From Flectonema sp. DT1601 (taxonomy: Eukaryota), in contig OZ025803.1 of the NCBI GenBank assembly GCA_964019425.1, forward strand, positions 806,001-870,000: 64,000 nucleotides of DNA. Direction: 5' to 3'. The notes under the pieces are model-generated. The model saw only the letters and a program-made list of their open reading frames with translations. It made no database searches and was not told the origin of the DNA. A program made the position numbers and the translations under genes. Positions within the stretch are counted from its first letter, which is position 1. Each line of letters begins with the position of its first letter. Shown piece by piece: positions 17,351 through 38,340 of this stretch.

Positions 17351-17657
17351 ATTTTAATAATTCAATTCAATATTGATATCTGAACGAAGATTTTTAAGTA
17401 AGAGAAAGGAAGGATTTGCATAAAGACTGACAAAGAAGGTACTAAGAGTGCGAAGCCCGTTGCCAATTAAAGAGATACATGATAAAATAAATTTGTGTCG
17501 GATGCTAATCATTTAATTTCTGTGTTCCTTGTCGGATTTTTACCTGCAGTTTACACTCAGAAGAGGTCTCTTTGGATACAGCAGTCCGAGCTGGAGTTGA
17601 CCAAGAGTAAAACTTTTCATTCTTTATTAATCACGTCAATAAGTAAATAATTTTTTC

Positions 17658-19800: not shown

Positions 19801-20175
19801 ATTAAAAATTTCCCAGAAAAAATAAAGTGGGGGGGGATCGGGAGTGATGCGAATAAATAAAAACTTTTTTTATTTATTTATTTATTTATTTAGTCACATC
19901 CCCCCTGTCTTTCTACTTTGTTTTTATTCTTTCTGAGCATACTCGCTCTTCTTATTTTTTAACTAAGTAAATAAGCAACAACGAGTGCAACTGTTGTGAG
20001 TCCGTTGGAGGACTTCCCCGGATAGGAAGCTCACGACACTGTAAGTACAAAGCGAATGATCAATACGGAGACGGTGGCCAAAGACCACTGGGTTACCTGC
20101 GAGCTATGAAGCTCTACGGATGTCCTCAGAGAGTTATTAGGAGATGAATTAGGAGTGATGTATGAGTATGATATA

Positions 20176-23100
20176 CTAAAAAGATAGTAACTTCTGATAA
20201 CAGCTTGTTGCCGTCCATTGTTCTAAATGCCATATGAAGCCAGCGAGGGAATGTAAGTTCCTCGTAGCGAACATAAATAGCAGGCTGTGTTCCTTCTTTG
20301 AAATCTTCGCTTCTTCCATGACAGATCCAATTGTTCCATTTCTGATGCGTACCAGAGCAGAGTTCATGCAGTTAAACATCAAGTGTCTAGGTGATGAGTC
20401 CGTCCGTTTACAAAAAGGGCACTTCAGTTGTACGCCTTTGTCTCTCAGCAAGGGGTGTGAACCCGTTCTGAATTGTGCAATTCTTACTTCCGAAGCCCTC
20501 AGCATGTCTTTCGGATATCTAGCAGTTCTCAATCCTCCGGTCGCCTCCAGATACTGTCTGAGCATCACCCGTTTCATTGGAGGCTTTGCCTTCTCGGAGG
20601 CTTCCATCATCTTTCCTATCAACTTCCTGTGAGACTCCCTCGCTACCCTTGATTTGTGGGCGAAGAAATCCATGGTCGTTGAGACCGGTTTACTTTCGGC
20701 ATCCTTCGAGACTTCTTTGGCCAGCTTATCAGCCTTATCGTGTGGTTCAATCCCCACATGGGCCGGGATAAACTGGAGATGCACCTGTGTCTTCAGATCC
20801 CTAATGCTTTCCAGTATTAACAGAGAGTTCAACTTCCTCTGGGCAACAATCCCTCCATTGAGTTCCTCCAGGTTGGATTTCGAGTCACTGAAGATTCTGG
20901 TAATACCTGACCTGGGACCCAAGATCGAGTCAGCTTTGCCAATTTCTCTCATCAGCAGTTTGAGTGTTACTTGTTCAGCCTTGTAGCTGCTTTCAGTAGC
21001 TACAAGTCTTGACGACATCGTTCTCTCAGTTGGTGAGACCTGTACTGCTGCCGCACCCGCAGTGTAGTTAGCAGGATCATGTGAGCCGTCCACATATATA
21101 GCCGAGTTGCAAGGGACTAGGTCCCTGCAGTATTCCTCAAATTTGTTCCTATCCACATCTGCATCACCGGTCTTGTTATGACCATACCCACAGGATATCT
21201 CTAGATTTGGTACATCCGCCCAAGGTTCGATGCTGTCAGGTTGAACTATTCCTTGGAGGGCGATGTTACAATCTTCCTGCGGCAACTTAGAACTCCAGAA
21301 TCCTTTCGCTATTCGGTTCGTCGAACGTACCCACCTCAGCGATCGATACCTAAACAGAGCAGTTCTGGCCTGTTTTTCTATTATCAACTTCATCGGGAGC
21401 ATGTTCGCCTCCAAGAGCAGTGGGAGAGACCTGGTGTAGATGCTGCAACCCGTTATCCTTCTCGCAATCTTCTTCAGATTCAAGTCCACAAGATCAATCT
21501 GACCCTCAGATAGGAAAGGACCGAAGCTCTCCAGCCCATATGACAGCCTTGAAAGTATGTACAGGTTCTTGACCATGCACAGCGTCTTAAAATCAAAATC
21601 ATACTGTTCTAGTTTCCCCAGGAGTGCAAGACCCTTCCTGGTCTCATCCAGCATCTTTCCGACCTGTGTTCCATAAGATAAATCACCATCAATGTGCACC
21701 CCCAGGTATTTAACGCTGTCTACCATCGGCATCAGTACTGCGGTTAACAACTTTACTCTCAGCTTACTTGATCCATCAGGGAAAATTGCAAGCAGGTCCT
21801 TCGTATTAGCAACTTCGGTATCATCCACCTTGAGAATGGTTTCTCCACTACCCAGAATTGGCCTTCCAAACTCGTTCGGTCTGATCATCTTAGCCAGATC
21901 TCCCCTGCTTACAACGTAATAATTATCCTTTGCAGTCCTGGGGAAGCCCAGTCTCCAGTAGATATCCTTTGGGCAGCGCACAGGCATACCACATGTCTTA
22001 GAGACGGACAGTGCCATGTCATTGGTTTTGCACCAGCTATCCACAAGTCCAAGGATCCATTGCGCTTTCTTATTGGTTAAATTAACGTCCTTATCAGAGA
22101 CTACACAAGCGGTGTCATCTGCATAAAGAGCCGAAACTGAGCCAGTCTTTTCCAACAACTTCGCCAGGTCATCAACATAAATCAGGTATAGCAGCGGACC
22201 GATAATCGAACCTTGGGGAACCCCCCTCGTTACCGTTCTGTAGGAGCTAAGGTTGCCATTCGCACTCACCCTTGCCTGCCTGCCCTTCAGGAAGTCAACT
22301 ACCCATGCAATGAACGGGGAGGGAATACTCATGTTCTTCATCTTCTTGATCAGTTTCTCATGATTAATTCTATCAAATGCTTCCGTGAAGTCGAACGACA
22401 GCAGAACAGAGCTCTTGTTCTTTTCACTGGCCTCATGAAGAGCGTTGACTAACATTGAAATCTGCTCACACGTATTCCTTCCTCTTCTAAAACCCGCCTG
22501 GATAGACGACAGGGCATTGTTCTGGGTAAGCCAATACATCAACCTATCATAAATCACTCTTTCAAGTACTTTACCCACCACCGAGGTCAACGTGATCGGT
22601 CTGAAACTTGCGATCTTATCTTTTGGCTTACCTGGTTTGTAAACTGGCTTGATAAGACCCTCCTTCCAGATCCTCGGTACCTTTGACGTTAGCCACGATT
22701 CATTGAATAACGCCAGGAGGAAATCCATTCCTATCACCGATAAGTTCTTCAACATTATCCCATGGATTCCATCTGGACCTGGTGCTTTCCCGGGCCTTAC
22801 CTTCTTGATGGCTCGCTTCAGTTCAGTCATTGTTAGATTCCCTCCGATTTTGGCGAAGTCGCTGCTCTTCGTATTCGGAGGTCCTAGTTTACGTTTTGTC
22901 GGGGTCTTGACAAATTGTTCCAAGAACTTCGCAGGTAGTTGGTTCTCGTCAAACTCCGGAATGTGAATTTCACGTCCTTCATCCGTCTCAAGGTCCTTTA
23001 TCTTTTTGAACGCATATGCAAAGCCTTCACCTTTTGCTAGCCGTTCAGCGATAAATTTTCCCTTCGCACGCTTGGTATCTGGGGTGGAAGCGTTCCACAT

Positions 23101-24063
23101 TCTTCTTCTCTTCCCTTTGATCCGAAGCCTTCTCCTAACGTACCTCTTCGCTACTCCAAGAACGATTCTGTTGAACGTTACTGCTCTTCTCCCAACGCTC
23201 GCAGAGTTGTTTACCTTTCCAAACCTGTAGTCTAGTTCATGTTCATATGAGTACCAATCAGCTGTATTGAAGTCCCAGACCGATCTCTTCGTCGCGTGGT
23301 TGCCCGAAGGCTCAAGGGGTGAGAGCGTATCGAAGGTAGCAGAGAGTGGTGTATGATCCGAACCGTGCTCAATTCCTTCACCTACCAGCTCAAAGTTAAG
23401 CAGTTGAATCTCCTCGTGGTGCAGGATCAGATCGGGCGAGGTCCCATGTCTCGGCAGTGTCGCTAGACCTGGCGGGTTCGCAATCAGGAGGTCCTCTTGC
23501 CCTGTCCAGTTGAGAAGGTCACAGCCTTTTACGTCGGTTTTCTTGGACCAGTACCTATGGTGTGCGTTGAAGTCACCAGCGAGAATGAACTTGCCAACAC
23601 GTTTAAGGGAGAATAGTTCAAAATTAATCCTCGAGCTCGGTGGGGAGTAGATGTTGAGAATACTTACGTCTTCGTTAATTCTGACACCCATCGACTCGAC
23701 GGTTCCTCTCATCGACGGTATGGAGATATCAAAGCAATCATGTTGAATTCCTCGTTTTATTAAAGTGATCAGGCCACCTCCCCTTCCTGGCCTATCCCTC
23801 CTGTAGCAAACGTAGTTCCAATGAAACAATGCCATCCTGCAAGAAGTCTCCTGAAGGCAAAGTACGTCGGGGTCAAGCTTACTCAGGATGTGTCCAATGA
23901 ACTCCATTTTGTTCGAGATGGTGCGACAATTCCAACTGATTACATTTAGTTTGCAAGAGGGACCATCCTTTCTCCTATTCGGCCCTGGGTTTCGTTCAAC
24001 GTCCCCTGCTATCAGCAAGAGACGTCTTCGAGTCTCAGCCCAGTTCCTTCCATCTACGTGCCG
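20176..24063 (-). CDS. ORF2 of family-A copy 1: 2A-like peptide, APE endonuclease, reverse transcriptase, RNase H, C-terminal Cys/His motif
   Basis: ISWN, LQET, NIYSPP, AGDFNAH, SDH; PGPDG, FRPITL, QAGF, PQGS, YADD, YLG; YVDGS, FSDS, PAHVG; CPFC...HLMFNC. The frame is open from the ORF1 stop at 24064-24066. Confidence 0.95.
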   Translation of the reverse strand, partial: RHVDGRNWAETRRRLLLIAGDVERNPGPNRRKDGPSCKLNVISWNCRTISNKMEFIGHILSKLDPDVLCLQETSCRMALFHWNYVCYRRDRPGRGGGLITLIKRGIQHDCFDISIPSMRGTVESMGVRINEDVSILNIYSPPSSRINFELFSLKRVGKFILAGDFNAHHRYWSKKTDVKGCDLLNWTGQEDLLIANPPGLATLPRHGTSPDLILHHEEIQLLNFELVGEGIEHGSDHTPLSATFDTLSPLEPSGNHATKRSVWDFNTADWYSYEHELDYRFGKVNNSASVGRRAVTFNRIVLGVAKRYVRRRLRIKGKRRRMWNASTPDTKRAKGKFIAERLAKGEGFAYAFKKIKDLETDEGREIHIPEFDENQLPAKFLEQFVKTPTKRKLGPPNTKSSDFAKIGGNLTMTELKRAIKKVRPGKAPGPDGIHGIMLKNLSVIGMDFLLALFNESWLTSKVPRIWKEGLIKPVYKPGKPKDKIASFRPITLTSVVGKVLERVIYDRLMYWLTQNNALSSIQAGFRRGRNTCEQISMLVNALHEASEKNKSSVLLSFDFTEAFDRINHEKLIKKMKNMSIPSPFIAWVVDFLKGRQARVSANGNLSSYRTVTRGVPQGSIIGPLLYLIYVDDLAKLLEKTGSVSALYADDTACVVSDKDVNLTNKKAQWILGLVDSWCKTNDMALSVSKTCGMPVRCPKDIYWRLGFPRTAKDNYYVVSRGDLAKMIRPNEFGRPILGSGETILKVDDTEVANTKDLLAIFPDGSSKLRVKLLTAVLMPMVDSVKYLGVHIDGDLSYGTQVGKMLDETRKGLALLGKLEQYDFDFKTLCMVKNLYILSRLSYGLESFGPFLSEGQIDLVDLNLKKIARRITGCSIYTRSLPLLLEANMLPMKLIIEKQARTALFRYRSLRWVRSTNRIAKGFWSSKLPQEDCNIALQGIVQPDSIEPWADVPNLEISCGYGHNKTGDADVDRNKFEEYCRDLVPCNSAIYVDGSHDPANYTAGAAAVQVSPTERTMSSRLVATESSYKAEQVTLKLLMREIGKADSILGPRSGITRIFSDSKSNLEELNGGIVAQRKLNSLLILESIRDLKTQVHLQFIPAHVGIEPHDKADKLAKEVSKDAESKPVSTTMDFFAHKSRVARESHRKLIGKMMEASEKAKPPMKRVMLRQYLEATGGLRTARYPKDMLRASEVRIAQFRTGSHPLLRDKGVQLKCPFCKRTDSSPRHLMFNCMNSALVRIRNGTIGSVMEEAKISKKEHSLLFMFATRNLHSLAGFIWHLEQWTATSCYQKLLSF

Positions 24064-25034
24064 TCATTTACCTTCCAAGAATCTCGTCATCAGCATCTCT
24101 AAACGATCCATCCTTCGTTCCATCGTATCCTGTTCAGCTGTCGACTTCTTCACAGTTTTCTTTGTCACAACCTGCTCTACAGGACCTACTTCCTTCAAGG
24201 CTCCTTTCCTCTCCTCAATCTTCACACCCGCTTCCCGCCAGAGTCTCTTCCCCTTCCCCTTACCATGAAAGGATAAGAATTCTGCTCGCAAGTAGCAACG
24301 ATTAGAGGCCTCCCCCTCTGTTGGATCACGTCTCTTCTCCGGCGGAGTAAGGCCTTTTTCCGGTGTGCTCTCCGCAGTTGACGTTGGCTGAGTTTTCTCC
24401 TTCACATCCACCTCTCTGGCAGCTTGGCGCTTCTTACGATCTTGTCTTTGAACTACCTCAACCGTACATGCCCTACCGTCGATTAATACCGTGTCGTCAT
24501 CCGGCACTTCAGCACGCACCCTCATCCATCTGTATCCAGTCCTTACTCCATCCACGGTTGCTCTCACATGCCACCCATCCTTCGCCAGCAGCGCTACCGC
24601 TTCACGGGGAAGTACATCTAACGGAATTCCCGAGATTTCTAATTCAGGGAGCTTTGCAGGGATTCCCAGTTTTTCCCTGGTTACATCTTCCAGCTCCGGT
24701 GAAACTCTGATACCAAAACCTTTAGGGTTTTCGACTAATCCCAACGATTCCAAGGAATCAGAGTGTTCAACTGCCTCCTTCAAAGAGCACTCGTCCTGAA
24801 GCCAAATAACTGTATCCTTCGGAGCCTCCCCTTCGTCTTGGATCCACAAGAACCTCCCATCTTTGCCGGAAGTTCTTAGCAGTTCCACCGCCCCGGATTT
24901 CCTCAGTCGGATGACAGCCGACACCGTACTCTTCGTTACCCTGAAGTTGTACGCTTCCATGAAGCCGGGTGTGTCCTTCATTTCTTTTGTGATGAGGTGC
25001 TCAGGCTTGCTCGCTAACTCAAGCCACTTATCAT
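24064..25034 (-). pseudogene. C-terminal portion of ORF1, family-A copy 1 (truncated and interrupted)
   Basis: Near-identical to the last ~320 aa of ORF1 at 35048-38212. The track N-terminus MVHSKKKKN comes from the poly-A tail of element B. Confidence 0.9.
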
Positions 25035-28000
25035 TTTTTTTTTTTTTTGAGTGCACCACGACCCGTGAGTCTGTGATGCTGTTTGCGCTGTTAGGCGCGG
25101 CTGTTCTTTTTCTTTCTTTCTTTCTTACTTTCTTTGTTTTGGGGGTTGGGGGTGGGAATCCCGTAGGCTTCGTATCTCCTTTCTTTGTTTTGATAACTTA
25201 AAACTAATACTACATAATTAATTGTCCACTTGGACGACTTCAGATGTGTTGCAATGATGCCTTCAATGTTGATATTCGAAATGTCGATGTTTTAATAATA
25301 CTACCGTCCTAATAGTTGTGCCAGTCTGTCTAAGGTTGTGACAAAACCAGTCATCTGCTGTTGATTCGCAGGTAAGTAGCAGTCCTCCAGTTGGCATGCT
25401 TCCTCTCCCTTGTCATTCATCATGTGACTGATGTATTTTTCTCTCAAGGTTTCTATACACCAATGTTCGCATATAAATAATACATGATGTGCTGTCGCCT
25501 TTCCAAGTTTACAGAAAAAGCACAGCTCGTTCAGTCCTTTGATTATCAGAGATCTGCAATGTCCCACTCTAAAGCGTGACATCAGTACTTCCTCTGGTCG
25601 TGTTAGAGCTTCGATGTACGGAGGGTGTCTTACCTCTCCCGGTCCGATCCAGTTCTCCCGTTTTCTCCGCTTGTGAAACGTCATCAATGTTCCCATGTCA
25701 AGTTGAGTGGGCAGTTGTTTAATAATAACATCTTCGTGAGGTGGATCTTCCTTCAGGCCTGCAGCGAATTTCGCCAGTTGGTCCGCTACTTCGTTGTACC
25801 GCACGTTTCTGTGTGCCGGTACATACTGCATGTTGACTTGGATTCCCTTCTTCTCCAGTTTCATTGCCAACTTCCAGATCTTTTTGTTCATTGGGGACCT
25901 TTGTTTATATGGCCCTTGTTCCAATGCCTGCATGACTGACATCGAATCAGTCAACAGGTGCGTCGTTGTTGTTAGAGATTCATGTTCATCCTCCGCCACC
26001 TGAACTAAATTTTCCAACGCCAGTTTCACTGCAATCTGCTCGGTCCTATAAGAGGAACCCGCTACTGGTATTTTATATCCAAGTAGACGCATCTTGCTTT
26101 CGTTAACCATGACCACAGCGGCAGCCGCGTCTGTCATGTACGTGTTGGGTTTGGGTCTTATCGACCCGTCAGTGTAGACTTTCATCTCGTGGGCTGGTAG
26201 TTCAGTTTCTCGCTGTTCAGCCTCTTCCTTGTTACTTGAATATGTGAATCTCATCGCACTAGTACTTTCCCATGGAGGGAGAGTGTAGTGTTCTGGGTTC
26301 ACTTCCAGGTTGGTAATGCTCCGGTAATTGTCAAGGCCAGGGATACCAGAGACATAGTCTATCCAGACATTCCATCCCCATTTTGATTTTTGAAATAATT
26401 CTGAACTCCCTGTTCTCGTCAGCTTGCGAGTCGGTAGGAACGGACTTAATTTGAAACGTTCATAGGTTCTACACATCTTATACTGGTTGTGTTCCTTCAG
26501 TCTTGGCGTGTCGGCTTCTTTGTAAAGTCTCTGTAGTTTGGTGCTCCGCAGACATCCAGTTACCAGCCTCACTGCCCTGTTTACCAGTAATTCCAGTTGT
26601 TCGAAGCACTCTTTTGGTAGCATCCAAGCAAAGCTTTCAACACCATAAAGCACCCTTGCTAACACCACCGTCACCAGTATACTGATGAGTGTCCTCTTTC
26701 TGCAGCCTATCCTAGTGAGTCTAACCAACAAGCCTAGACCCTTGGAAGCAGCTGTCATCATCTTTTGAATTTGCGACTTAAAGGTTAACTTCTCGTCATA
26801 ATGTACACCCAGGTACCGCACGGTATTCGTCTTGTGAACTTTTCGTCCAACCGCATAGGCAAATCCGTGTAATCCGGGCCCCACTCTTTCCAGCATCTTA
26901 TCTATTTCTGCCTTGTTGTGGACTTTCTTCAGTTGTGAGAAGCTGGCGCTCATCTTCATTGTTTTCAGTACCGCCGGTTTGTTCGGTAGCTTGACTTTGA
27001 TCTTATGTTTTGGAACGACATACAGGTGAGTGATGGCGAATTCTTCTTTTGAAACTACAGTTGTTGAGTTATCATCCTTCACAAGGTTACTCATTTGTTC
27101 TGCCGTGGCCACCACATATTTAAATGTGTGTTCTTCAGAGTATACTACTACTGGGGACTTGTCATGAGTTCCACTTGGCCTCACGTGAATGTATTCCGTC
27201 TTGCCAGGGTTCTTATTGATTTTGATGTGTGAGTCAAGTGCCCACCTTTCAAATATTTTGACTGCGTTGTTAACCTTGTTTTCTAAACAGCTGACAGTGC
27301 CCGCGGTTATTACTATTCCAACATCATCTGCAAAGACAGTCGGTTCGTACATCTCTAGTTTATCTATCAAATCGTTGATGAAGATAGAGAATAACTGGGG
27401 TCCCAGCACGCTTCCTTGTGGTACTCCTACTCGAATGTTCCGGAATGCTCCCTTCACTCCATTCACCCTTGTTGAAATCTTCCTACTAGTCAAGTAGTTT
27501 TGAACCCACCGTAGATATTTCGTTGGTAGTCCTATTTTGGACATCTTATTTAGAAGAGTTACCGGTTGAACTGCATCGAAGGCTTTTTGTAGGTCGAAGG
27601 TGATTAATATCGCTTCTTCCCCCATTGCCTTGGCACTTTTGAGTTTGTCTGTAACTATACAGAGATTTTCAATGGAATCCCGTCCTCGTTTGTAGGCTGC
27701 TTGCCTCGGATTTATTCTGTCTTTCAACAGGTGGTGCATCCGTTCTACGACCATTCTTTCAAAGAGTTTCGAGACGGTCGAGGTTAGTGCTATCGGTCTG
27801 TACGATAAGACTTGTTTCTTGTCTTTATCAGGTTTCAGTATGGGTATTACCATTCCACTTTTCCAGCACCTGGGTACTGCTGATCGTTGCCATGAGAGGT
27901 TGAATAGTCTTAGTAGTTGCTCGAGGAAAGCTTTTGGAAGTTGTTTTAACATCGAGTTCCAGATGTGGTCAGGTCCAGGTGCCTTCTTCTCTTTTGTTTT

Positions 28001-29039
28001 TGAAATTTGTCGTTCCAGTTCAGGCATTCCAAATTCCACCGAGTTATCATCAGGTATTCCTTGTAAGGTTGGTTCACCGTCTTCGAATTTGAATTGGTCT
28101 GCGTATGTTTTGGTGAAGACATCTGCCATCTCCCGCGGGTCGGTTAATTCCTTCTCACCGTCGACAATCTTAGTAATTGAATGGTCCATCATTCTACCTT
28201 CCAGTTGTTTAACTTTTCTAAAGGCCCATCGGTAGTCCATTCCAGTCATGTCGCACTCAATGATCTTCTGTTTGATCATGTTGATACCTCTTTCAATTGC
28301 TTCTGAGTCTGTCTTATCAGGGTCAGTCTCTGCCATTAAATCTTCCAATTCTGAATCCCTCACAGCGAAGGTACTACTTGACTTCTTGTTGTAGCCTGGG
28401 ATGGCCCTTCTCGCTGCTCTCAGAATCTCGTTGTTGATCCTATTAGCAAGTTTCTGCACATTCTTAATTCTTTCTAATTTGGGCGCTGCCCTTTCCAACA
28501 ATATTTTATAATAATTCCAATCGGCACAATGCCACTTCCATTTCCATGTCCCAGAACTCTCTTTTGAATATTCATCTGTTTTGATATCTTCGATTGTCAG
28601 TTTGAGTGGCAGGTGATCGCTGCCCCATCCCTTCATGAGTTCGATTTGTGCATCCAAAGAAATATCTAATGCAATTACATCCGGAGAGGCTGAGCTCTGT
28701 GGTCTTGTGTGTTGTTGAGGTTTGTTTAGAATTTGAATTGCTGCTTCTAGTGACCAATCGTAGAAGCTGTTACCAGTAATGTTCGTATTTCCATTTGACC
28801 AAGTTGAATGGTGTCCATTAATGTCACCCGCAATCAATGTGCCGGGCTCTGATATAAACTTCCAGGTTGTTGCCTTGATTTCAGGCGGGTGGTAAACATT
28901 GTGAATTGTCAATGGCGGATTAGATTGAAGTACTACTGTTAATATCTCAGTTTGGTCATGTGAGATGTCGGGGTGTTTTAATATTATCTTATTTAAATCA
29001 TTTCTGACCAGAGTGACGAGTCCTCGATGACCTGACTTG
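25035..29039 (-). mobile_element. Element B: second family of Ingi-like non-LTR retrotransposon, 5'-truncated in APE, nested in family-A copy 1
   Basis: Poly-A tail (T run to 25048). ATCAT is duplicated at 25030-25034 and 29040-29044. Family-A sequence resumes exactly after the insertion. Confidence 0.93.
25301..29039 (-). CDS. APE (partial)-RT-RNase H polyprotein of element B
   Basis: NVYHPP, AGDINGH, SDH, PGPD, YRPIAL, PQGS, FADD, YLG, VYTDGS, LTDS, PAH...NEVAD, CFFC...HVLFIC. The frame is intact; the track ATG lies in the TSD. Confidence 0.92.
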
Positions 29040-29137
29040 ATCATCCTTCCACCTTCTTTTAGGAGCGGTCACTATTGCCTTCACCGATTTATATAAAACC
29101 TTTTTTTTTATTTATTTAATAAAAAAACTTTTTTGTC

Positions 29138-30848
29138 TTTTTTTTTTTTTTTTTTTTTTTTTTCATTACTACCTGAAACTGTCTCTTCTTTTTCTACAGC
29201 AACGGGCTGACGCAAAACACGCGTACATTTAATGTGGGTCCAGGGCAATTGCCCACCTCATAAGAGGCCCATTGTTCTTCCTTTCTTTCTCCCCAAGTTA
29301 GTAAGGCAGGTGTAAAATAAAATAACAAAAAGAAATTTATTTATGGGGAGGAATTGTCAATCGTAAGATATGACTTATACTTATCACATATGTAAATATG
29401 TGGAGAAGGTAAGAACAATAACGAAAAACTTCATGTCGAAGTTGCAGCTCGTCGCAATTTGAATTGACATAGCTGTAGCTGCTATGTGCTTTTTGGGGAT
29501 GGCCTGAAAGGTGCGGACTTTCATCTAAGATCTCAAAAACTCTCGATCTGTGTCCAATCTATATCGGCCCATCAATCAATCAACAATCAGACCATCCCCA
29601 TGGTGTAGGTGCTACTTTGGTTAATTTGGAAGCTTGAGAAATCAAGTCAGTTGTGAGTTTTGAATCACAGTATTGAAAAGTGTGGGTTGAAGGATAACGT
29701 TTTCTTCATTTTCTTTCTTTGTTTCCTGACTCAAATTTTCTTTTTTCTTTTCTTTTTCTGGAAAAACATATCTTCTTGCAGATGACATAAAAAGAAAAAC
29801 ATTCTCTAGTCCTTGTACAGTGGAAAGACAATCCTTTAACTCTTCTTGTGTTAGAGAGTCTTTCTGGAGATACATCCTCCTCTCTTTTCTGTACTTTGAG
29901 CATTTTGCTAACAGGTGCTCTACAGAGTCTTTTTCTCTGCACCTAGGACATTTCCCTTGTGTTTGTTTACAGTCGCCAATTCTGAGTTGTGAAATCAGAA
30001 TTTCTTCCGCTCTTTCAGTTTCAGATGGGAAAGGACGGGGGTCAAATTTTTCTTTTATTCTGTGTTTTAGTTTAGCTACATGGGTGCTGTAGTCTATGGG
30101 AACTTTTTTTTGTTTTAAAAGGGTTTCTTCATCTTTTTTTAATGAAATGTTTTGGGCTAGTTTGTCTGCTTCTTCGTTTCCGACAATACCACAGTGAGAA
30201 AAGACATGCTGGAAAATAAACTTTGTTTTGAATTTATTGTTGAAAAATTCAATAAACTGCCAGATGCGGCTTCCTAGTCTCGTTTTCTGTTTTGTTCCCC
30301 CTTTTTCCAGTTCCATCAAGGCACTGGAGGAGTCTGACACAAATAAAACTGACGCATTTTCCGGCGGTTTAAATTCCTTAAAAAGTAAAACAAAAGCGTT
30401 TTTGATCGCCATCATTTCAGCCCTAAAAGAGGTGCAGATTATTCCTGCTTCACTTTTGTTCGTGAGAAATTCATTTCCTTCGCTGTCTATGATGTACACA
30501 CCCGCAGCACCGCGTTCTTCAACAACGGCACCATCGGTATATACCTCTAAGACTGGTTCATAATCTTTCCTTATTTCATTAAGAACAGCTTCACAGGCTT
30601 TTTTATTTTTCTTTTTGTCTTTTTTTTTTCTAACATGCATTTCTGGTTTAAAAACATTGAAATCATTTGAAAAACTCCATGGAGGATGAACGTAAATGGG
30701 ATATTTCTCAAAACTGAGTGATAGAAGGTTGTGTTCTTTCAGAACATTCATTCCTAAACGAGTAAAAGAATCAATGGGTGTTGAGGATATTCTTTCAGGT
30801 GGAATAAAGACATTTAATAAAGGGGACGTGATTCGCGCCATTTTGGCG
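29138..30848 (-). mobile_element. Element C: third family, heavily 5'-truncated non-LTR retrotransposon (RNase H and Cys/His end only; ORF 29642-30841)
   Basis: Long poly-A tail (T run 29138-29163) and ~480-nt 3' UTR. PPW, VYTDGA, SFRAE, VSDS, HVFSHCGIVGNEEAD, CPRC...HLLAKC. Much more AT-rich than families A and B. Confidence 0.9.
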
Positions 30849-31159
30849 AACCATCATTTATTTATTTATTTATTTAGTCACATCCCCCCTGTCTTTCTAC
30901 TTTGTTTTTATTCTTTCTGAGCATACTCGCTCTTCTTATTTTTTAACTAATTAAATAAGCAACAACGAGTGCAACTGTTGTGAGTCCGTTGGAGGACTTC
31001 CCCGGATAGGAAGCTCACGACACTGTAAGTACAAAGCGAATGATCAATACGGAGACGGTGGCCAAAGACCACTGGGTTACCTGCGAGCTATGAAGCTCTA
31101 CGGATGTCCTCAGAGAGTTATTAGGAGATGAATTAGGAGTGATGTATGAGTATGATATA

Positions 31160-34100
31160 CTAAAAAGATAGTAACTTCTGATAACAGCTTGTTGCCGTCC
31201 ATTGTTCTAAATGCCATATGAAGCCAGCGAGGGAATGTAAGTTCCTCGTAGCGAACATAAATAGCAGGCTGTGTTCCTTCTTTGAAATCTTCGCTTCTTC
31301 CATGACAGATCCAATTGTTCCATTTCTGATGCGTACCAGAGCAGAGTTCATGCAGTTAAACATCAAGTGTCTAGGTGATGAGTCCGTCCGTCTACAAAAA
31401 GGGCACTTCAGTTGTACGCCTTTGTCTCTCAGCAAGGGGTGTGAACCCGTTCTGAATTGTGCAATTCTTACTTCCGAAGCTCTCAGCATGTCTTTCGGAT
31501 ATCTAGCAGTTCTCAATCCTCCGGTCGCCTCCAGATACTGTCTGAGCATCACCCGTTTCATTGGAGGCTTTGCCTTCTCGGAGGCTTCCATCATCTTTCC
31601 TATCAACTTCCTGTGAGACTCCCTCGCTACCCTTGATTTGTGGGCGAAGAAATCCATGGTCGTTGAGACCGGTTTTCTTTCGGCATCCTTCGAGACTTCT
31701 TTGGCCAGCTTATCAGCCTTATCGTGTGGTTCAATCCCCACATGGGCCGGGATAAACTGGAGATGCACCTGTGTCTTCAGATCCCTAATGCTTTCCAGTA
31801 TTAACAGAGAGTTCAACTTCCTCTGGGCAACAATCCCTCCATTGAGTTCCTCCAGGTTGGATTTCGAGTCACTGAAGATTCTGGTAATACCTGACCTGGG
31901 ACCCAAGATCGAGTCAGCTTTGCCAATTTCTCTCATCAGCAGTTTGAGTGTTACTTGTTCAGCCTTGTAGCTGCTTTCAGTAGCTACAAGTCTTGACGAC
32001 ATCGTTCTCTCAGTTGGTGAGACCTGTACTGCTGCCGCACCCGCAGTGTAGTTAACAGGATCATGTGAGCCGTCCACATATATAGCCGAGTTGCAAGGGA
32101 CTAGGTCCCTGCAGTATTCCTCAAATTTGTTCCTGTCCACATCTGCATCACCGGTCTTGTTATGACCATACCCACAGGATATCTCTAGATTTGGTACATC
32201 CGCCCAGGGTTCGATGCTGTCAGGTTGAACTATTCCTTGGAGGGCGATGTTACAATCTTCCTGCGGCAACTTAGAACTCCAGAATCCTTTCGCTATTCGG
32301 TTCGTCGAACGTACCCACTTCAGCGATCGATACCTAAACAGAGCAGTTCTGGCCTGTTTTTCTATTATCAACTTCATCGGGAGCATGTTCGCCTCCAAGA
32401 GCAGTGGGAGAGACCTGGTGTAGATGCTGCAACCCGTTATCCTTCTCGCAATCTTCTTCAGATTCAAGTCCACAAGATCAATCTGACCCTCAGATAGGAA
32501 AGGACCGAAGCTCTCCAGCCCATATGACAGCCTTGAAAGTATGTACAGGTTCTTGACCATGCACAGCGTCTTAAAATCAAAATCATACTGTTCTAGTTTC
32601 CCCAGGAGTGCAAGACCCTTCCTGGTCTCATCCAGCATCTTTCCGACCTGTGTTCCATAAGATAAATCACCATCAATGTGCACCCCCAGGTATTTAACGC
32701 TGTCTACCATCGGCATCAGTACTGCGGTTAACAACTTTACTCTCAGCTTACTTGATCCATCAGGGAAAATTGCAAGCAGGTCCTTCGTATTAGCAACTTC
32801 GGTATCATCCACCTTGAGAATGGTTTCTCCACTCCCCAGAATTGGCCTTCCAAACTCGTTCGGTCTGATCATCTTAGCCAGATCTCCCCTGCTTACAACG
32901 TAATAATTATCCTTTGCAGTCCTGGGGAAGCCCAGTCTCCAGTAGATATCCTTTGGGCAGCGCACAGGCATACCACATGTCTTAGAGACGGACAGTGCCA
33001 TATCATTGGTTTTGCACCAGCTATCCACAAGTCCAAGGATCCATTGCGCTTTCTTATTGGTTAAATTAACGTCCTTATCAGAGACTACACAAGCGGTGTC
33101 ATCTGCATAAAGAGCCGAAACTGAGCCAGTCTTCTCCAACAACTTTGCCAGGTCATCAACATAAATCAGGTATAGCAGCGGACCGATAATCGATCCTTGG
33201 GGAACCCCCCTCGTTACCGTTCTGTAGGAGCTAAGGTTGCCATTCGCACTCACCCTTGCCTGCCTGCCCTTCAGGAAGTCAACTACCCATGCAATGAACG
33301 GGGAGGGAATACGCATGTTCTTCATCTTCTTGATCAGTTTCTCATGATTAATTCTATCAAATGCTTCCGTGAAGTCGAACGACAGCAGAACAGAGCTCTT
33401 GTTCTTTTCACTGGCCTCATGAAGAGCGTTGACTAACATTGAAATCTGCTCACACGTATTCCTTCCTCTTCTAAAACCCGCCTGGATAGACGACAGGGCA
33501 TTGTTCTGGGTAAGCCAATACATCAACCTATCATAAATCACTCTTTCAAGTACTTTACCCACCACCGAGGTCAACGTGATCGGTCTGAAACTTGCGATCT
33601 TATCTTTTGGCTTACCTGGTTTGTAAACTGGCTTGATAAGACCCTCCTTCCAGATCCTCGGTACCTTTGACGTTAGCCACGATTCATTGAATAACGCCAG
33701 GAGGAAATCCATTCCTATCACCGATAAGTTCTTCAACATTATCCCATGGATTCCATCTGGACCTGGTGCTTTCCCGGGCCTTACCTTCTTGATGGCTCGC
33801 TTCAGTTCAGTCATTGTTAGATTCCCTCCGATTTTGGCGAAGTCGCTGCTCTTCGTATTCGGAGGTCCTAGTTTACGTTTTGTCGGGGTCTTAACAAATT
33901 GTTCCAAGAACTTCGCAGGTAGTTGGTTCTCGTCAAACTCCGGAATGTGAATTTCACGTCCTTCATCCGTCTCAAGGTCCTTTATCTTTTTGAACGCATA
34001 TGCAAAGCCTTCACCTTTTGCTAGCCGTTCAGCGATAAATTTTCCCTTCGCACGCTTGGTATCTGGGGTGGAAGCGTTCCACATTCTTCTTCTCTTCCCT

Positions 34101-35047
34101 TTGATCCGAAGCCTTCTTCTAACGTACCTCTTCGCTACTCCAAGAACGATTCTGTTGAACGTTACTGCTCTTCTCCCAACGCTCGCAGAGTTGTTTACCT
34201 TTCCAAACCTGTAGTCTAGTTCATGTTCATATGAGTACCAATCAGCTGTATTGAAGTCCCAGACCGATCTCTTCGTCGCGTGGTTGCCCGAAGGCTCAAG
34301 GGGTGAGAGCGTATCGAAGGTAGCAGAGAGTGGTGTATGATCCGAACCGTGCTCAATTCCTTCACCTACCAGCTCAAAGTTAAGCAGTTGAATCTCCTCG
34401 TGGTGCAGGATCAGATCGGGCGAGGTCCCATGTCTCGGCAGTGTCGCTAGACCTGGCGGGTTCGCAATCAGGAGGTCCTCTTGCCCTGTCCAGTTGAGAA
34501 GGTCACAGCCTTTTACGTCGGTTTTCTTGGACCAGTACCTATGGTGTGCGTTGAAGTCACCAGCGAGAATGAACTTGCCAACACGTTTCAGGGAGAATAG
34601 TTCAAAATTAATCCTCGAGCTCGGTGGGGAGTAGATGTTGAGAATACTTACGTCTTCGTTAATTCTGACACCCATCGACTCGACGGTTCCTCTCATCGAC
34701 GGTATGGAGATATCAAAGCAATCATGTTGAATTCCTCGTTTTATTAAAGTGATCAGGCCACCTCCCCTTCCTGGCCTATCCCTCCTGTAGCAAACGTAGT
34801 TCCAATGAAACAATGCCATCCTGCAAGAAGTCTCCTGAAGGCAAAGTACGTCGGGGTCAAGCTTACTCAGGATGTGTCCAATGAACTCCATTTTGTTCGA
34901 GATGGTGCGACAATTCCAACTGATTACATTTAGTTTGCAAGAGGGACCATCCTTTCTCCTATTTGGCCCTGGGTTTCGTTCAACGTCCCCTGCTATCAGC
35001 AAGAGACGTCTTCGAGTCTCAGCCCAGTTCCTTCCATCTACGTGCCG
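31160..35047 (-). CDS. ORF2 of family-A copy 2: 2A-like peptide-APE-RT-RNase H
   Basis: Same motifs as copy 1, with about five amino-acid differences. No in-frame ATG before the APE ISWN motif; the track start is a TTG. Confidence 0.95.
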   Translation of the reverse strand, partial: RHVDGRNWAETRRRLLLIAGDVERNPGPNRRKDGPSCKLNVISWNCRTISNKMEFIGHILSKLDPDVLCLQETSCRMALFHWNYVCYRRDRPGRGGGLITLIKRGIQHDCFDISIPSMRGTVESMGVRINEDVSILNIYSPPSSRINFELFSLKRVGKFILAGDFNAHHRYWSKKTDVKGCDLLNWTGQEDLLIANPPGLATLPRHGTSPDLILHHEEIQLLNFELVGEGIEHGSDHTPLSATFDTLSPLEPSGNHATKRSVWDFNTADWYSYEHELDYRFGKVNNSASVGRRAVTFNRIVLGVAKRYVRRRLRIKGKRRRMWNASTPDTKRAKGKFIAERLAKGEGFAYAFKKIKDLETDEGREIHIPEFDENQLPAKFLEQFVKTPTKRKLGPPNTKSSDFAKIGGNLTMTELKRAIKKVRPGKAPGPDGIHGIMLKNLSVIGMDFLLALFNESWLTSKVPRIWKEGLIKPVYKPGKPKDKIASFRPITLTSVVGKVLERVIYDRLMYWLTQNNALSSIQAGFRRGRNTCEQISMLVNALHEASEKNKSSVLLSFDFTEAFDRINHEKLIKKMKNMRIPSPFIAWVVDFLKGRQARVSANGNLSSYRTVTRGVPQGSIIGPLLYLIYVDDLAKLLEKTGSVSALYADDTACVVSDKDVNLTNKKAQWILGLVDSWCKTNDMALSVSKTCGMPVRCPKDIYWRLGFPRTAKDNYYVVSRGDLAKMIRPNEFGRPILGSGETILKVDDTEVANTKDLLAIFPDGSSKLRVKLLTAVLMPMVDSVKYLGVHIDGDLSYGTQVGKMLDETRKGLALLGKLEQYDFDFKTLCMVKNLYILSRLSYGLESFGPFLSEGQIDLVDLNLKKIARRITGCSIYTRSLPLLLEANMLPMKLIIEKQARTALFRYRSLKWVRSTNRIAKGFWSSKLPQEDCNIALQGIVQPDSIEPWADVPNLEISCGYGHNKTGDADVDRNKFEEYCRDLVPCNSAIYVDGSHDPVNYTAGAAAVQVSPTERTMSSRLVATESSYKAEQVTLKLLMREIGKADSILGPRSGITRIFSDSKSNLEELNGGIVAQRKLNSLLILESIRDLKTQVHLQFIPAHVGIEPHDKADKLAKEVSKDAERKPVSTTMDFFAHKSRVARESHRKLIGKMMEASEKAKPPMKRVMLRQYLEATGGLRTARYPKDMLRASEVRIAQFRTGSHPLLRDKGVQLKCPFCRRTDSSPRHLMFNCMNSALVRIRNGTIGSVMEEAKISKKEHSLLFMFATRNLHSLAGFIWHLEQWTATSCYQKLLSF
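34964..35047 (-). other. 2A-like StopGo (ribosome skipping) peptide RHVDGRNWAETRRRLLLIAGDVERNPG/P (also 23980-24063)
   Basis: Matches the D(V/I)ExNPGP consensus with the typical upstream RRLLL-x-x-G segment. Confidence 0.92.
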
Positions 35048-38000
35048 TCATTTACCTTCCAAGAATCTCGTCATCAGCATCTCTAAACGATCCATCCTTC
35101 GTTCCATCGTATCCTGTTCAGCTGTCGACTTCTTCACAGTTTTCTTTGTCACAACCTGCTCTACAGGACCTACTTCCTTCAAGGCTCCTTTCCTCTCCTC
35201 AATCTTCACACCCGCTTCCCGCCAGAGTCTCTTCCCCTTCCCCTTACCATGAAAGGATAAGAATTCTGCTCGCAAGTAGCAACGATTAGAGGCCTCCCCC
35301 TCTGTTGGATCACGTCTCTTCTCCGGCGGAGTAAGGCCTTTTTCCGGTGTGCTCTCCGCAGTTGACGTTGGCTGAGTTTTCTCCTTCACATCCACCTCTC
35401 TGGCAGCTTGGCGCTTCTTACGATTTTGTCTTTGAACTACCTCAACCGTACATGCCCTACCGTCGATTAATACCGTGTCGTCATCCGGCACTTCAGCACG
35501 CACCCTCATCCATCTGTATCCAGTCCTTACTCCATCCACGGTTGCTCTCACATGCCACCCATCCTTCGCCAGCAGCGCTACCGCTTCACGGGGAAGTACA
35601 TCTAACGGAATTCCCGAGATTTCTAATTCAGGGAGCTTTGCAGGGATCCCCAGTTTTTCCCTGGTTACATCTTCCAGCTCCGGTGAAACTCTGATACCAA
35701 AACCTTTAGGGTTTTCGACTAATCCCAACGATTCCAAGGAATCAGAGTGTTCAACTGCCTCCTTCAAAGAGCACTCGTCCTGAAGCCAAATAACTGTATC
35801 CTTCGGAGCCTCCCCTTCGTCTTGGATCCACAAGAACCTCCCATCTTTGCCGGAAGTTCTTAGCAGTTCCACCGCCCCGGATTTCCTCAGTCGGATGACA
35901 GCCGACACCGTACTCTTCGTTACCCCGAAGTTGTACGCTTCCATGAAGCCGGGTGTGTCCTTCATTTCTTTTGTGATGAGGTGCTCAGGCTTACTCGCTA
36001 ACTCAAGCCACTTATCATCCTTCCACCTTCTTTTAGGAGCGGTCACTATTGCCTTCACCGATTTAATACCCCGCTTACCCTTTGGTAGAGCAGCCTCACC
36101 CAGGTCATGAATGAAGATGCGATGTACCTTGTTTCCATCCTTGCTCGATAATAGCACGTGTTCCCTTCTTCCTTGTCCATTCACTTGGTCCAGCGTTACC
36201 ACGCTGCACGTTTTCCATGCAGGAACCTCCGGCTTCATCCCCAGAAGATCTCTTGCCTCCGAAGGCGTCGCAAGGGCTACTCCTTGATTCCCTTTCGATA
36301 CCTCCTCAAACTTCGTGACCGGAATGTTCCAATCAGCTTCCCTCAGGCTCCAGGAGTTCAACACTTCCCTCTCCTTCTTGTTGGTTTTCTCCCAGAGACG
36401 TCTGGCTTTTTCAACAGCTTTCATCGACTGCGTCGCTTTCTTTTCCAGTGATTCCCACTCGGATGTGCAGTTCCTCTGTACAGCTGATCTAACCTTTGAC
36501 TCATCAGTGGTGAGGCCGTAGGAGCGAGAGTAGGTCAGACCGTTCACTAAGTTGGCAATTCCCAGTGGTGGTTGGCTCGGGGCTACTACGACCTCATTCA
36601 CTTCTTCGCTTCTCTGCGCTCTCGATGAGGCCAACTCCTGTCTCAGTTCTTTTAGCTGAGTCTGGAGTTCCATGAGCAACTTCCTCAGCTCACCCTTCTC
36701 TTCTCTCTCTTTCTGGAGCTCCAGTCGGAGTTGTTCAATTCCCTGTTGTTGCGGAAGTACCGGCGGGTACGGTTGCCTTTGATGCATCGGTGCATAAGGC
36801 TGGTGCTGCATGTAGTAGACCGGAGGTTGGCTTACTGCATGCGTTTGCTGACGGAGGCTGCTTTGTTGGAGTTGGAGCTTCTGTTGCTGTTGTCGCAGTT
36901 TTCCTTCTTGAAGTTCCAGATCTAGCTTTGACTTCTGGTCTTCTTGTTGCTGTTGTTCGAACTCCTTTCCAAGCTCCCGTTGAAGTTGGAGCAGTTCCTT
37001 CCTCCCTTGTTCCTTCTCCTTTTCTTGTTGTTGTTGGAGTTGATGGCTACGCAGCTTCTGTTGTTCGAACTCCATGTCTAGCTTGTTCCTGAGACACTGG
37101 AGTTCCTTCCTACCCTTCTCCATCTCGTCCTCCTGCTGGCGTTGTAGTTGGAGTCGTTGATGCTCAAGGTCATCTTCCTGCTTTTTGATTTCTTCCCGTC
37201 TCTGTTGTTGTTGCTGCTGGTCCAGTTTGCCCTTTTCCAACTCCACATTCAGTTGATGTTGAAGCAGCTGCTGTTTTTCCTCCAGGCTAACCTGTTGCAG
37301 TTGCAGATTCTGTTGAATCCTGGACTGTTCTTGTTGTTGTTGGCGTTGGTCTTCTTCGAGTTGGCATCTTCTTCTTCGGAGAGATTCATCCTCGACAGCC
37401 TTCTCCTTGCTGTGCTGCTGTTCGAGCTGCTGTTGTTGGATCAGTATTTGTTCCTGCTTCTGTTGTAGGTCTGCTTTATATTGTAGCAGTTCTTGTTGTT
37501 GTTGGTTTAACAACTCTTGGCTATGTTGTTGGTTTTGATGTTGTTGTTGGACTTGATGCTCAAGTTGTTGTTGCTGTTGTATATGCTTATCCTGCTGTTG
37601 TTGGACTTGTTGATCAAGTTGCTGTTGCTGCTGCTGTTGGATTTCCTGCTGCTTTTTGACTTGATGGCTAAGTTGCTGTTCTTGCTGTTGTTGCTTCAGA
37701 CAGAGTTCATCTTCGTACTGAGTAAGAGCCTTCTGTTGTTGATGCAGATGTTCCTGGTTTTGTTGCTGTTGATGGTCCAGTTGTTTCTGGTTGACAAGTT
37801 GTTGCTGTTGATGGTTAGTCAGTACTTCCTCAAGCTGTTGTTGCTTTTGGAATAATTCTTCCTGTTTCTTCTGGAAGTTAACTTCTAGCTCACTCTGTTG
37901 TTTGCAGAGGAGCTCTTGTTGTTGCAGCAGTTCGTTCTTCTCTTCTTCCTGCTCTGCCTGTTTTTTCTTGAGGACCTTCTCGTCCTTCTTCCTGTCTTCG

Positions 38001-38212
38001 TCCCGATCCAGCCTTCTTAGGCCATCCCGTGCGAGTCTCTCCCTCAACTCGTCTCGTTCCTTCGTGTCTACGCTCGTCTTCCTGTCTTTCTTACCGTTCC
38101 CGTTCTCTGTGTGTGCTTTCCGGTTCCTTTCCTTCCGTGAGAGTATTTCACCTCCCATCTGGTTGCAAAATTTAGTCGGTCTCTGCCGTCCGAGACCGCC
38201 GCGTGGAGGCAT
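35048..38212 (-). CDS. ORF1 of family-A element: basic N-terminus, long Gln/Glu-rich coiled coil, globular C-terminal region
   Basis: Uninterrupted 1054-aa ORF between the 5' ribozyme fold and ORF2. No CCHC knuckle seen. Confidence 0.85.
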   Translation of the reverse strand: MPPRGGLGRQRPTKFCNQMGGEILSRKERNRKAHTENGNGKKDRKTSVDTKERDELRERLARDGLRRLDRDEDRKKDEKVLKKKQAEQEEEKNELLQQQELLCKQQSELEVNFQKKQEELFQKQQQLEEVLTNHQQQQLVNQKQLDHQQQQNQEHLHQQQKALTQYEDELCLKQQQQEQQLSHQVKKQQEIQQQQQQQLDQQVQQQQDKHIQQQQQLEHQVQQQHQNQQHSQELLNQQQQELLQYKADLQQKQEQILIQQQQLEQQHSKEKAVEDESLRRRRCQLEEDQRQQQQEQSRIQQNLQLQQVSLEEKQQLLQHQLNVELEKGKLDQQQQQQRREEIKKQEDDLEHQRLQLQRQQEDEMEKGRKELQCLRNKLDMEFEQQKLRSHQLQQQQEKEKEQGRKELLQLQRELGKEFEQQQQEDQKSKLDLELQEGKLRQQQQKLQLQQSSLRQQTHAVSQPPVYYMQHQPYAPMHQRQPYPPVLPQQQGIEQLRLELQKEREEKGELRKLLMELQTQLKELRQELASSRAQRSEEVNEVVVAPSQPPLGIANLVNGLTYSRSYGLTTDESKVRSAVQRNCTSEWESLEKKATQSMKAVEKARRLWEKTNKKEREVLNSWSLREADWNIPVTKFEEVSKGNQGVALATPSEARDLLGMKPEVPAWKTCSVVTLDQVNGQGRREHVLLSSKDGNKVHRIFIHDLGEAALPKGKRGIKSVKAIVTAPKRRWKDDKWLELASKPEHLITKEMKDTPGFMEAYNFGVTKSTVSAVIRLRKSGAVELLRTSGKDGRFLWIQDEGEAPKDTVIWLQDECSLKEAVEHSDSLESLGLVENPKGFGIRVSPELEDVTREKLGIPAKLPELEISGIPLDVLPREAVALLAKDGWHVRATVDGVRTGYRWMRVRAEVPDDDTVLIDGRACTVEVVQRQNRKKRQAAREVDVKEKTQPTSTAESTPEKGLTPPEKRRDPTEGEASNRCYLRAEFLSFHGKGKGKRLWREAGVKIEERKGALKEVGPVEQVVTKKTVKKSTAEQDTMERRMDRLEMLMTRFLEGK

Positions 38213-38225
38213 TTTGTGTGGTCCC
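38165..38225 (-). ncRNA. HDV-like self-cleaving ribozyme at the 5' end of the retroelement
   Basis: GGGACC-ACA-CAAAAU-GCC-UCCACGC-GGC-GGUCUC-GG-A-CGG-CAGAGA-CCG-A-CUAA-AUUUUG. P1 GGGACC/GGUCUC, P2 CAAAAU/AUUUUG, P3 GCC/GGC, L3 UCCACGC, P1.1 CC/GG, P4 CGG/CCG, J4/2 C-UAA carrying the catalytic C. Confidence 0.88.
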
Positions 38226-38268
38226 TAAAATAAAAAACCATCAATCTTTTTTTTTTTTTATCTTCAGA

Positions 38269-38340
38269 TCCGCTGTAGTATAGTGGTTAGAACACCTGGC
38301 CCTCACCCAGGAAACCGGGGTTCAATTCCCCGCAGCGGAA
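38269..38340 (+). tRNA. tRNA-Glu (anticodon CTC)
   Basis: Acceptor stem TCCGCTG/CAGCGGA, D loop AGTGGTTA, anticodon stem CCTGG/CCAGG with loop CC-CTC-AC, T arm CGGGG-TTCAATT-CCCCG. Confidence 0.93.

Follow-up and report, generated by a model that had tools for sequence, protein, structure and literature searches.

The first 60 nt of a full-length LINE of the diplonemid Flectonema sp. DT1601 have the sequence features of HDV-like ribozymes, are predicted to self-cleave, and include the first ATG of the open reading frame (ORF1) of the element. We consider it fairly probable that this HDV-like head cuts the element from read-through RNA at G38225 and also opens ORF1. The window, meaning the whole stretch of DNA analysed here, is 64,000 nucleotides long; positions are those of the window, and nucleotides of the fold are counted on the minus strand with G38225 as nt 1.

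A compact HDV-like fold

38166..38225, minus strand: predicted HDV-like ribozyme, G1 to G60 (pairings, descriptor match, weak CPEB3 match)
38226/38225, minus strand: predicted cut between A38226 and G38225; the predicted catalytic C51 is 38175, by its position in the fold

Pairing of the minus strand from G38225 locates all helices of the nested double pseudoknot that defines HDV-like ribozymes (P1, P1.1, P2, P3 and P4) together with L3 and J4/2, in agreement with the initial annotation. P1 (nt 1-6/29-34) consists of G-C, G.U, G-C, A-U, C-G and C-G, is 6 bp long from G1 and has its wobble at pair 2, not at pair 1; P2 (nt 10-15/55-60) has six Watson-Crick pairs; P3 (nt 16-18/26-28) is closed by the loop L3, UCCACGC (nt 19-25); P1.1 is made of C20-G36 and C21-G35; P4 (nt 38-40/47-49) has 3 bp beneath an A37.A50 opposition; and J4/2 is CUAA (nt 51-54), which fits C-N-R-A with the catalytic C as its first base. 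The annotation had spoken of a minimal ribozyme of 61 nt. Its pairings stand but its length does not: the last paired nucleotide is G60 (38166) and C61 opposes A9, so the fold has 60 nt. In the available part of PMC10879173, 'minimal' means that P4 is absent, and as there is a 3-bp P4 here, we prefer 'compact'. A 7-bp P1 starting from A38226 was rejected: it needs A.G as first pair, and the relatives described below begin at the equivalent of G1.

A descriptor search of both strands of the 64-kb window had a single match, the 38225 site, at each of three stringencies; the descriptor was composed after the sequence had been seen, and in block-wise dinucleotide shuffles it matched 2 of 15 in its loose, 1 of 40 in its compact and 0 of 60 in its strict form. 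Rfam, named as a check in the initial annotation, returned only a sub-threshold match to CPEB3_ribozyme (RF00622; 19.4 bits, E 0.11, gathering score 35) as its best HDV-like match, and no other HDV-like family was among the seven matches at E<=5. This E-value, together with a folding z-score of -0.62, could speak for a chance match in GC-rich coding sequence, but no strict shuffle matched, the fold is located at the end of an element, and two related families have the same fold with other helices. Chance is extremely improbable in our view, and the fold is very likely real and under selection.

A P1 of 6 bp is normal for the class and no defect; P1 lengths of 6 or 7 bp are given for most such ribozymes in the part of PMC4908430 available to us. 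A pattern built on the P3/L3 core of the window copy found 111 stretches in metagenomes, with 73 distinct matches: 60 of the 73 pair at both P1 positions left free in the pattern, and 54 complete the fold with C as first base of J4/2, while decoys with A, G or T at this place numbered 4, 2 and 1, respectively. The cleavage pair is G.U in all 54 phage-type folds; in the window it is G-C. When 110 metagenome loci were compared with ORF1 and ORF2 by tblastn, there was no match and also none to a LINE; the metagenome folds therefore define the class and are not relatives of the element. Pattern scans of viral contigs and of prokaryote genomes had zero matches. Many of the metagenome loci (L001-L110, for example L015, L018, L034, L036 and L039) have compact HDV-like folds with 6-bp P1; some of the folds are found just behind tRNA genes, like theta ribozymes, and others occur in tandem sets of two to three, with no tRNA found.

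Organisation of the element

The ribozyme-headed element is a full-length two-ORF LINE, flanked by 8-bp duplications, with G38225 as its first nucleotide and 30857, the end of a (TAAA)5 tail, as its last:

38236..38243, minus strand: target-site duplication (8 bp, TGATGGTT), 5' copy, which begins 26 nt upstream of a tRNA gene
38226..38235, minus strand: T-rich stretch of 10 nt that separates the duplication from G1; its final A and G1 form AG
35048..38212, minus strand: ORF1, 1054 aa; Gln-rich N-half, predicted RRM-like domains in the C-half
34964..35050, minus strand: ORF1 stop TGA-CGG, then the 2A motif LLLIAGDVERNPGP, in frame with ORF2
31160..35047, minus strand: ORF2 frame with APE endonuclease, reverse transcriptase and RNase H (Pfam; RNase H below cut-off)
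30857..31159, minus strand: 3' UTR ending in (TAAA)5 (from sequence)
30849..30856, minus strand: 3' copy of the 8-bp duplication (from sequence)

An 8-bp duplication was present in 115 of 200,000 shuffled flanks. ORF1 has no match in Pfam. Its C-half has a predicted structure with a mean pLDDT of 83.7, the matches of which to RRM-like domains are middling (at most Z 8.6, rmsd 2.4, 73 aligned); Foldseek found nothing for this half at E<=0.001. The RNase H of ORF2 reaches 19.2 bits (Pfam cut-off 25.8), and the nearest named relatives of ORF2 are from Flectonema neradi, with 40-48% identity. There is no in-frame ATG between the TGA of ORF1 and the 2A motif, and the arrangement is identical in a second, truncated copy in the window (copy A', see below). 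UGA-CGG is a readthrough context. The arrangement suggests that ORF2 is produced by UGA readthrough followed by 2A skipping.

With 23 members in the ORF1 cluster, the family is young and multicopy. Word-index searches with ORF1 retrieved its own cluster only; the relatives were found with an HMMER library.

Related families begin at the same nucleotide

The placement of the ribozyme at the element's 5' end, claimed in the initial annotation, is borne out: the unique match in the window sits at the start of the full-length LINE. Release from host read-through transcripts is also the likely job of the fold, as had been proposed there. Element and host share the minus strand (23 of 24 long ORFs of at least 200 aa, host and element together, with the upstream host ORF ending at 38537), and relatives inserted at unrelated sites have the G1 of this same fold as their first nucleotide. 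These relatives are known as peptides fused in frame to host genes, were back-translated and are visible only where the frame is open.

A codon-degenerate descriptor with fixed P3/L3 core had 10 matches in 228,131 residues of 258 proteins, which stand for two independent families and not for ten events: P0208, a copy of the same family that served as control, seven members of the P0213 family and two Flectonema isoforms. All ten are at 5' junctions, and each has G1 at the host/element junction and a P1 of 6 bp. The descriptor was tuned; its first version missed the P0213 family and had 9 off-junction matches, and a version without the core had 35. P0256 fails the descriptor, as its J4/2 is without the A and there is one mismatch in P2. 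Pairs fixed by codons vary among the families with pairing kept, for example in P2, where U-A in Flectonema is A-U in P0256.

The P0213 family (34% ORF1 identity) exposes the junction in 7 of 10 members, with host flanks of two kinds, a papain-like gene (3) and another gene (4), and in its members the shared sequence sets in at the second base of one codon. The papain of the window itself reads CNGGL-M and the fusions read CNGGL-R, which places the junction at G1. Two related families thus have the same fold with different helices and with G1 at the host/element junction; this supports a 5' end defined by cleavage, and the predicted cut likely sets where each copy begins. The 10 extra nt before G1 in the window copy are in keeping with R2, for which 5' additions without a template have been described (PMC3774820).

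The insertions of this sister LINE family (proteins P0213, P0250, P0251; P0247, P0248, P0252, P0253) are always in frame; they occupy one and the same codon in two or more different papain-like genes and occur four times in another gene family, and sequence-specific targeting of protein genes is possible. P0215/P0258 (Flectonema, transcriptome) and P0256 (from an assembly) are likewise in-frame fusions to host sequence, and both read DDFDRGR across the predicted P4.

A competing hairpin

38177..38198, minus strand: rival hairpin of 7 bp, nt 28-34/43-49 (nested folding models); excludes P1 and P4

In nested models, which leave out pseudoknots, a rival hairpin takes the 3' strand of P1 with a pair probability of 0.98-1.0, and together with P2 and P3 it reaches -15.3 kcal/mol. 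P1+P3 is the best fold for prefixes of 34, 36 and 42 nt; the rival hairpin wins at 48 nt. Folding models also allow the upstream flank of the window copy to pair with the 5' strand of P1. As the rival hairpin dominates the nested models, cleavage may be slow. For L1Tc, a switch to a non-catalytic fold is reported (PMC3185411). In three other families the rival hairpin is impossible.

The dominance of this hairpin, together with the G-C at the cleavage pair and an F15N change in a diverged ORF1 (P0212, see below), could mean that this family has a weak or dead version of a fold inherited from the clade, with a Pr77-like internal promoter setting the 5' end and with codon conservation reflecting constraint on promoter or protein. 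L1Tc uses the same 77 nt as promoter and as ribozyme, and some trypanosomatid copies are inactive. However, the window copy retains every helix and the catalytic C, P1+P3 leads in the short prefixes, the nested models leave the pseudoknots out of account, and the family is young and multicopy. A weak or dead fold is distinctly unlikely on this evidence, and we expect that the predicted ribozyme does cleave in this family.

The start codon of ORF1

38210..38212, minus strand: ORF1 ATG, nt 14-16, across the P2/P3 junction; kept in the diverged ORF1 P0212
38156..38158, minus strand: second in-frame ATG (Met19), nt 68-70, 7 nt past the fold; the gene call P0204 starts here, and P0212 does not have it

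The initial annotation had correctly seen the ORF1 AUG inside the fold (38212-38210, nt 14-16, at the P2/P3 junction) and the first 16 codons (nt 14-61) doubling as ribozyme. Its statement that the RNA must initiate at this buried AUG goes too far: there is a second in-frame ATG, and three relatives are without an early Met. In these three (P0213, P0215 and P0256) the ribozyme is read in a different frame, and no Met occurs from G1 up to a conserved ORF1 motif at +63, +50 and +52; the first Met is 102, 290 and 119 residues past the junction, respectively. AUG14 is therefore not a need of the whole clade. P0212, in which the conserved motif (RNxxAHxxNG) is at +34, keeps 14 of the 16 residues encoded by the ribozyme and diverges straight after, its next Met being residue 157; among its changes, one is in the P4 loop, and F15N fits only if J4/2 is shifted by one and has an extra base.

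A working ribozyme may thus be combined with an incidental AUG14, ORF1 being translated from Met19 or from an AUG-less start near the cut end, of the kind that the relatives without an early Met have to use: Met19 exists in this family, and the first Met of the three relatives falls behind the conserved motif. But P0212 keeps AUG14 and has no Met19, and MPPRGG is present in four of five near-full-length ORF1s among the matches listed, which are gene calls and one of which may be that of the window itself. An incidental AUG14 seems rather doubtful to us, and we lean towards AUG14 being used as start. For the clade as a whole, initiation probably takes place close to the cut end with no requirement for an AUG; that this family has one would be happenstance. 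Folding and translation may compete, as had been suggested in the initial annotation; after the cut, the predicted ribozyme is no more required for catalysis. For R2-type elements and for RNA viruses (PMC13725137), translation that starts without a cap behind self-cleaving motifs has been reported.

AUG14 could also be reached by scanning from a cap, if the RNA had two fates: cleaved RNA would be mainly a template for insertion, and RNA trapped in the rival hairpin would be trans-spliced at the AG formed by A-1 and G1, which would yield a capped mRNA with twelve bases between the spliced leader and AUG14; the ribozyme cut would split this AG. In the window, a T-tract and AG are directly before G2, and the Lys-Gly codons of P0208 likewise demand A at -1; AUG and rival hairpin are found in this family only, among the families compared, and essentially all Diplonema mRNAs have the spliced leader (PMC10161547). 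In the Flectonema copy, however, position -1 is U and in four P0213-family copies it is G, so an AG at the cut is not general. The tract is also short and perhaps target DNA or untemplated, L1Tc RNAs are described as unspliced in the accessible part of PMC3383444, and the window copy has no leader-sized addition. We regard trans-splicing at this site as unlikely and favour entry of the ribosome at or near the cut end.

Insertions next to a tRNA gene

38269..38340, plus strand: tRNA-Glu(CUC), the window's only tRNA gene, 43 nt from G1 and in head-to-head orientation to the element
29136..30848, minus strand: element B, a LINE fragment truncated at its 5' end, with an RNase H ORF and a poly-A tail; ends approximate
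19872..29091, minus strand: copy A', a 5'-truncated copy of the ribozyme-headed element without the ribozyme (99.6% over 5163 nt)
29123-29134 and 19859-19870, minus strand: 12-bp duplication of copy A' (from sequence)
about 25035-29039, minus strand: third LINE, inside ORF1 of copy A' (APE-RT-RNase H, 1247-aa ORF, poly-A tail)

We infer that element B is an earlier insertion at the same site; its duplication is ambiguous with the poly-A tail. When later insertions are removed, the full-length element and A' have duplications with the same starting point, 26 nt upstream of the tRNA gene, a reconstruction that depends on the ambiguous duplication of element B. Three insertions appear to be stacked at the tRNA site, as is the case with TRE5-A of Dictyostelium. 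P0208, which is on another contig, has an N-terminal extension of 32 residues, and the first 13 residues admit the 5'-half of a tRNA on the opposite strand with its +1 at 44 nt from G1; the tRNA 5'-half pattern has a control rate of 1.3e-4 per position; among 48 real tRNAs it recognised 25, and it did not recognise the tRNA of the window itself. By inspection, no tRNA-like flank was found in the other listed cluster members. With two tRNA genes only, targeting of tRNA genes by this family is still reasonably probable in our estimation. A preference for A/T-rich DNA would be an alternative, and the insertion of related families in protein genes speaks against tRNA targeting.

At position 33 the tRNA-Glu(CUC) carries C, and its D stem contains an A12.A23 opposition, so that this gene may be weak or a variant. 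Pol III transcription of the element from the tRNA promoter was considered and rejected, with T-runs just upstream of and inside the fold. The 5' junction of A' has about 31 extra nt (29122-29092, minus strand), including a 16-nt copy of its 3' junction, hinting at template jumping during insertion. Behind A' is a degenerate, rearranged older relative (17638-19852, minus strand) that is 70-87% identical in pieces.

Comparison with known systems

The following comparisons draw on those parts of the cited papers that were available. The element resembles L1TcRz/Pr77 (PMC3185411, PMC3383444, PMC4035085) in being a euglenozoan LINE with APE, RT and RNase H, with a 2A motif before APE and with an HDV-like fold in its first nucleotides that cleaves at +1 and releases the element from polycistronic RNA (both predicted here). 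However, the L1Tc fold has 77 nt and is in the 5' UTR, while the fold in the window has 60 nt and is coding. Elements of the ingi clade are described as having no ORF1 (PMC3708506) and end in poly(A); here there is an ORF1 of 1054 aa, an in-frame stop, 2A and (TAAA)n, and by this organisation the element is not a Pr77-type single-ORF ingi element. With R2 (PMC3774820, PMC12203849) it shares the processing from a host co-transcript and untemplated, non-inherited 5' additions; cap-independent initiation promoted by the ribozyme has been proposed for R2, and we envisage a similar start here. R2 differs in its location in 28S rDNA, its one ORF and a long J1/2. The predicted activity of the fold is that of the L1TcRz and R2 ribozymes.

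In structure, the fold is like the compact HDV-like ribozymes of phages and metagenomes and like theta ribozymes (PMC10879173), with which it shares the P3/L3 core, the 6-bp P1, a short J1/2 and C-N-R-A. Theta ribozymes, in contrast, are without P4 and lie within 5 nt of the phage tRNAs that they process; with its 3-bp P4 and a tRNA that is 43 nt off and on the other strand, the fold of the window is no theta ribozyme.

TRE5-A of Dictyostelium and NLTR-B of Polysphondylium (PMC3159450, PMC5006619) are also two-ORF APE LINEs near tRNA genes. TRE5-A lies some 50 bp upstream, its 5' end turned towards that of the tRNA, the same orientation as here, where the distance is 43 nt, and NLTR-B has RNase H, as has the element of the window. 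The hosts belong to another supergroup, and the available parts of these papers describe neither ribozyme nor 2A. Targeting of the TRE5 type has been shown for many copies and tied to binding of ORF1 to TFIIIB, whereas here it is deduced from two tRNA genes.

In our literature searches, no paper joined 'HDV-like ribozyme' with 'diplonemid', and we found no title on tRNA targeting in euglenozoans or on a start codon inside the HDV ribozyme of a LINE, with Ruminski 2011 outside the scope of the search. The main text of the Diplonema genome paper has zero occurrences of both 'ribozyme' and 'ingi'; its supplements may describe such repeats.

Proposed mechanism and implications

In the account that we favour, polycistronic host transcription would pass the antisense tRNA gene and run into the element. 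P1 and P3 would form first, and a cut between A-1 and G1 would leave an uncapped RNA with a 5'-OH, the end of which would become the 5' end of new copies. After or instead of cutting, the RNA could switch to the rival hairpin, with nt 1-9 freed and AUG14 in a weak A-U helix. Ribosomes would enter without a cap at or near the cut end, at AUG14 in this family and with no AUG in the three relatives; ORF2 would likely be reached by readthrough of the in-frame UGA and then 2A skipping, and insertion of the family would likely be directed to sites some 25-45 nt upstream of tRNA genes. All these features could also be joined in a bolder way: a 60-nt RNA that both self-cleaves and starts ORF1, be it with an AUG or with none, TRE5-like homing of independent origin, ORF2 by readthrough and 2A, and a hairpin switch. 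As the cut splits the trans-splice acceptor, the rival hairpin would here decide between a capped mRNA starting at AUG14 and an uncapped template. We think it unlikely that this combination applies as a whole.

The finding would extend 5' ribozymes from trypanosomatids to diplonemids. How uncapped LINE RNAs cut by a ribozyme are translated is, in the available literature on R2 and L1Tc, a matter of proposals. The families described here offer a natural comparison: the same fold of 60-70 nt stands at the start of ORF1 and includes an in-frame AUG in one family but not in three others, which makes initiation accessible to tests on a very small RNA. If the tRNA geometry should hold genome-wide, targeting of tRNA genes by LINEs would have had an independent origin outside the social amoebae, and such homing would be useful for thinking about insertion at safe sites.
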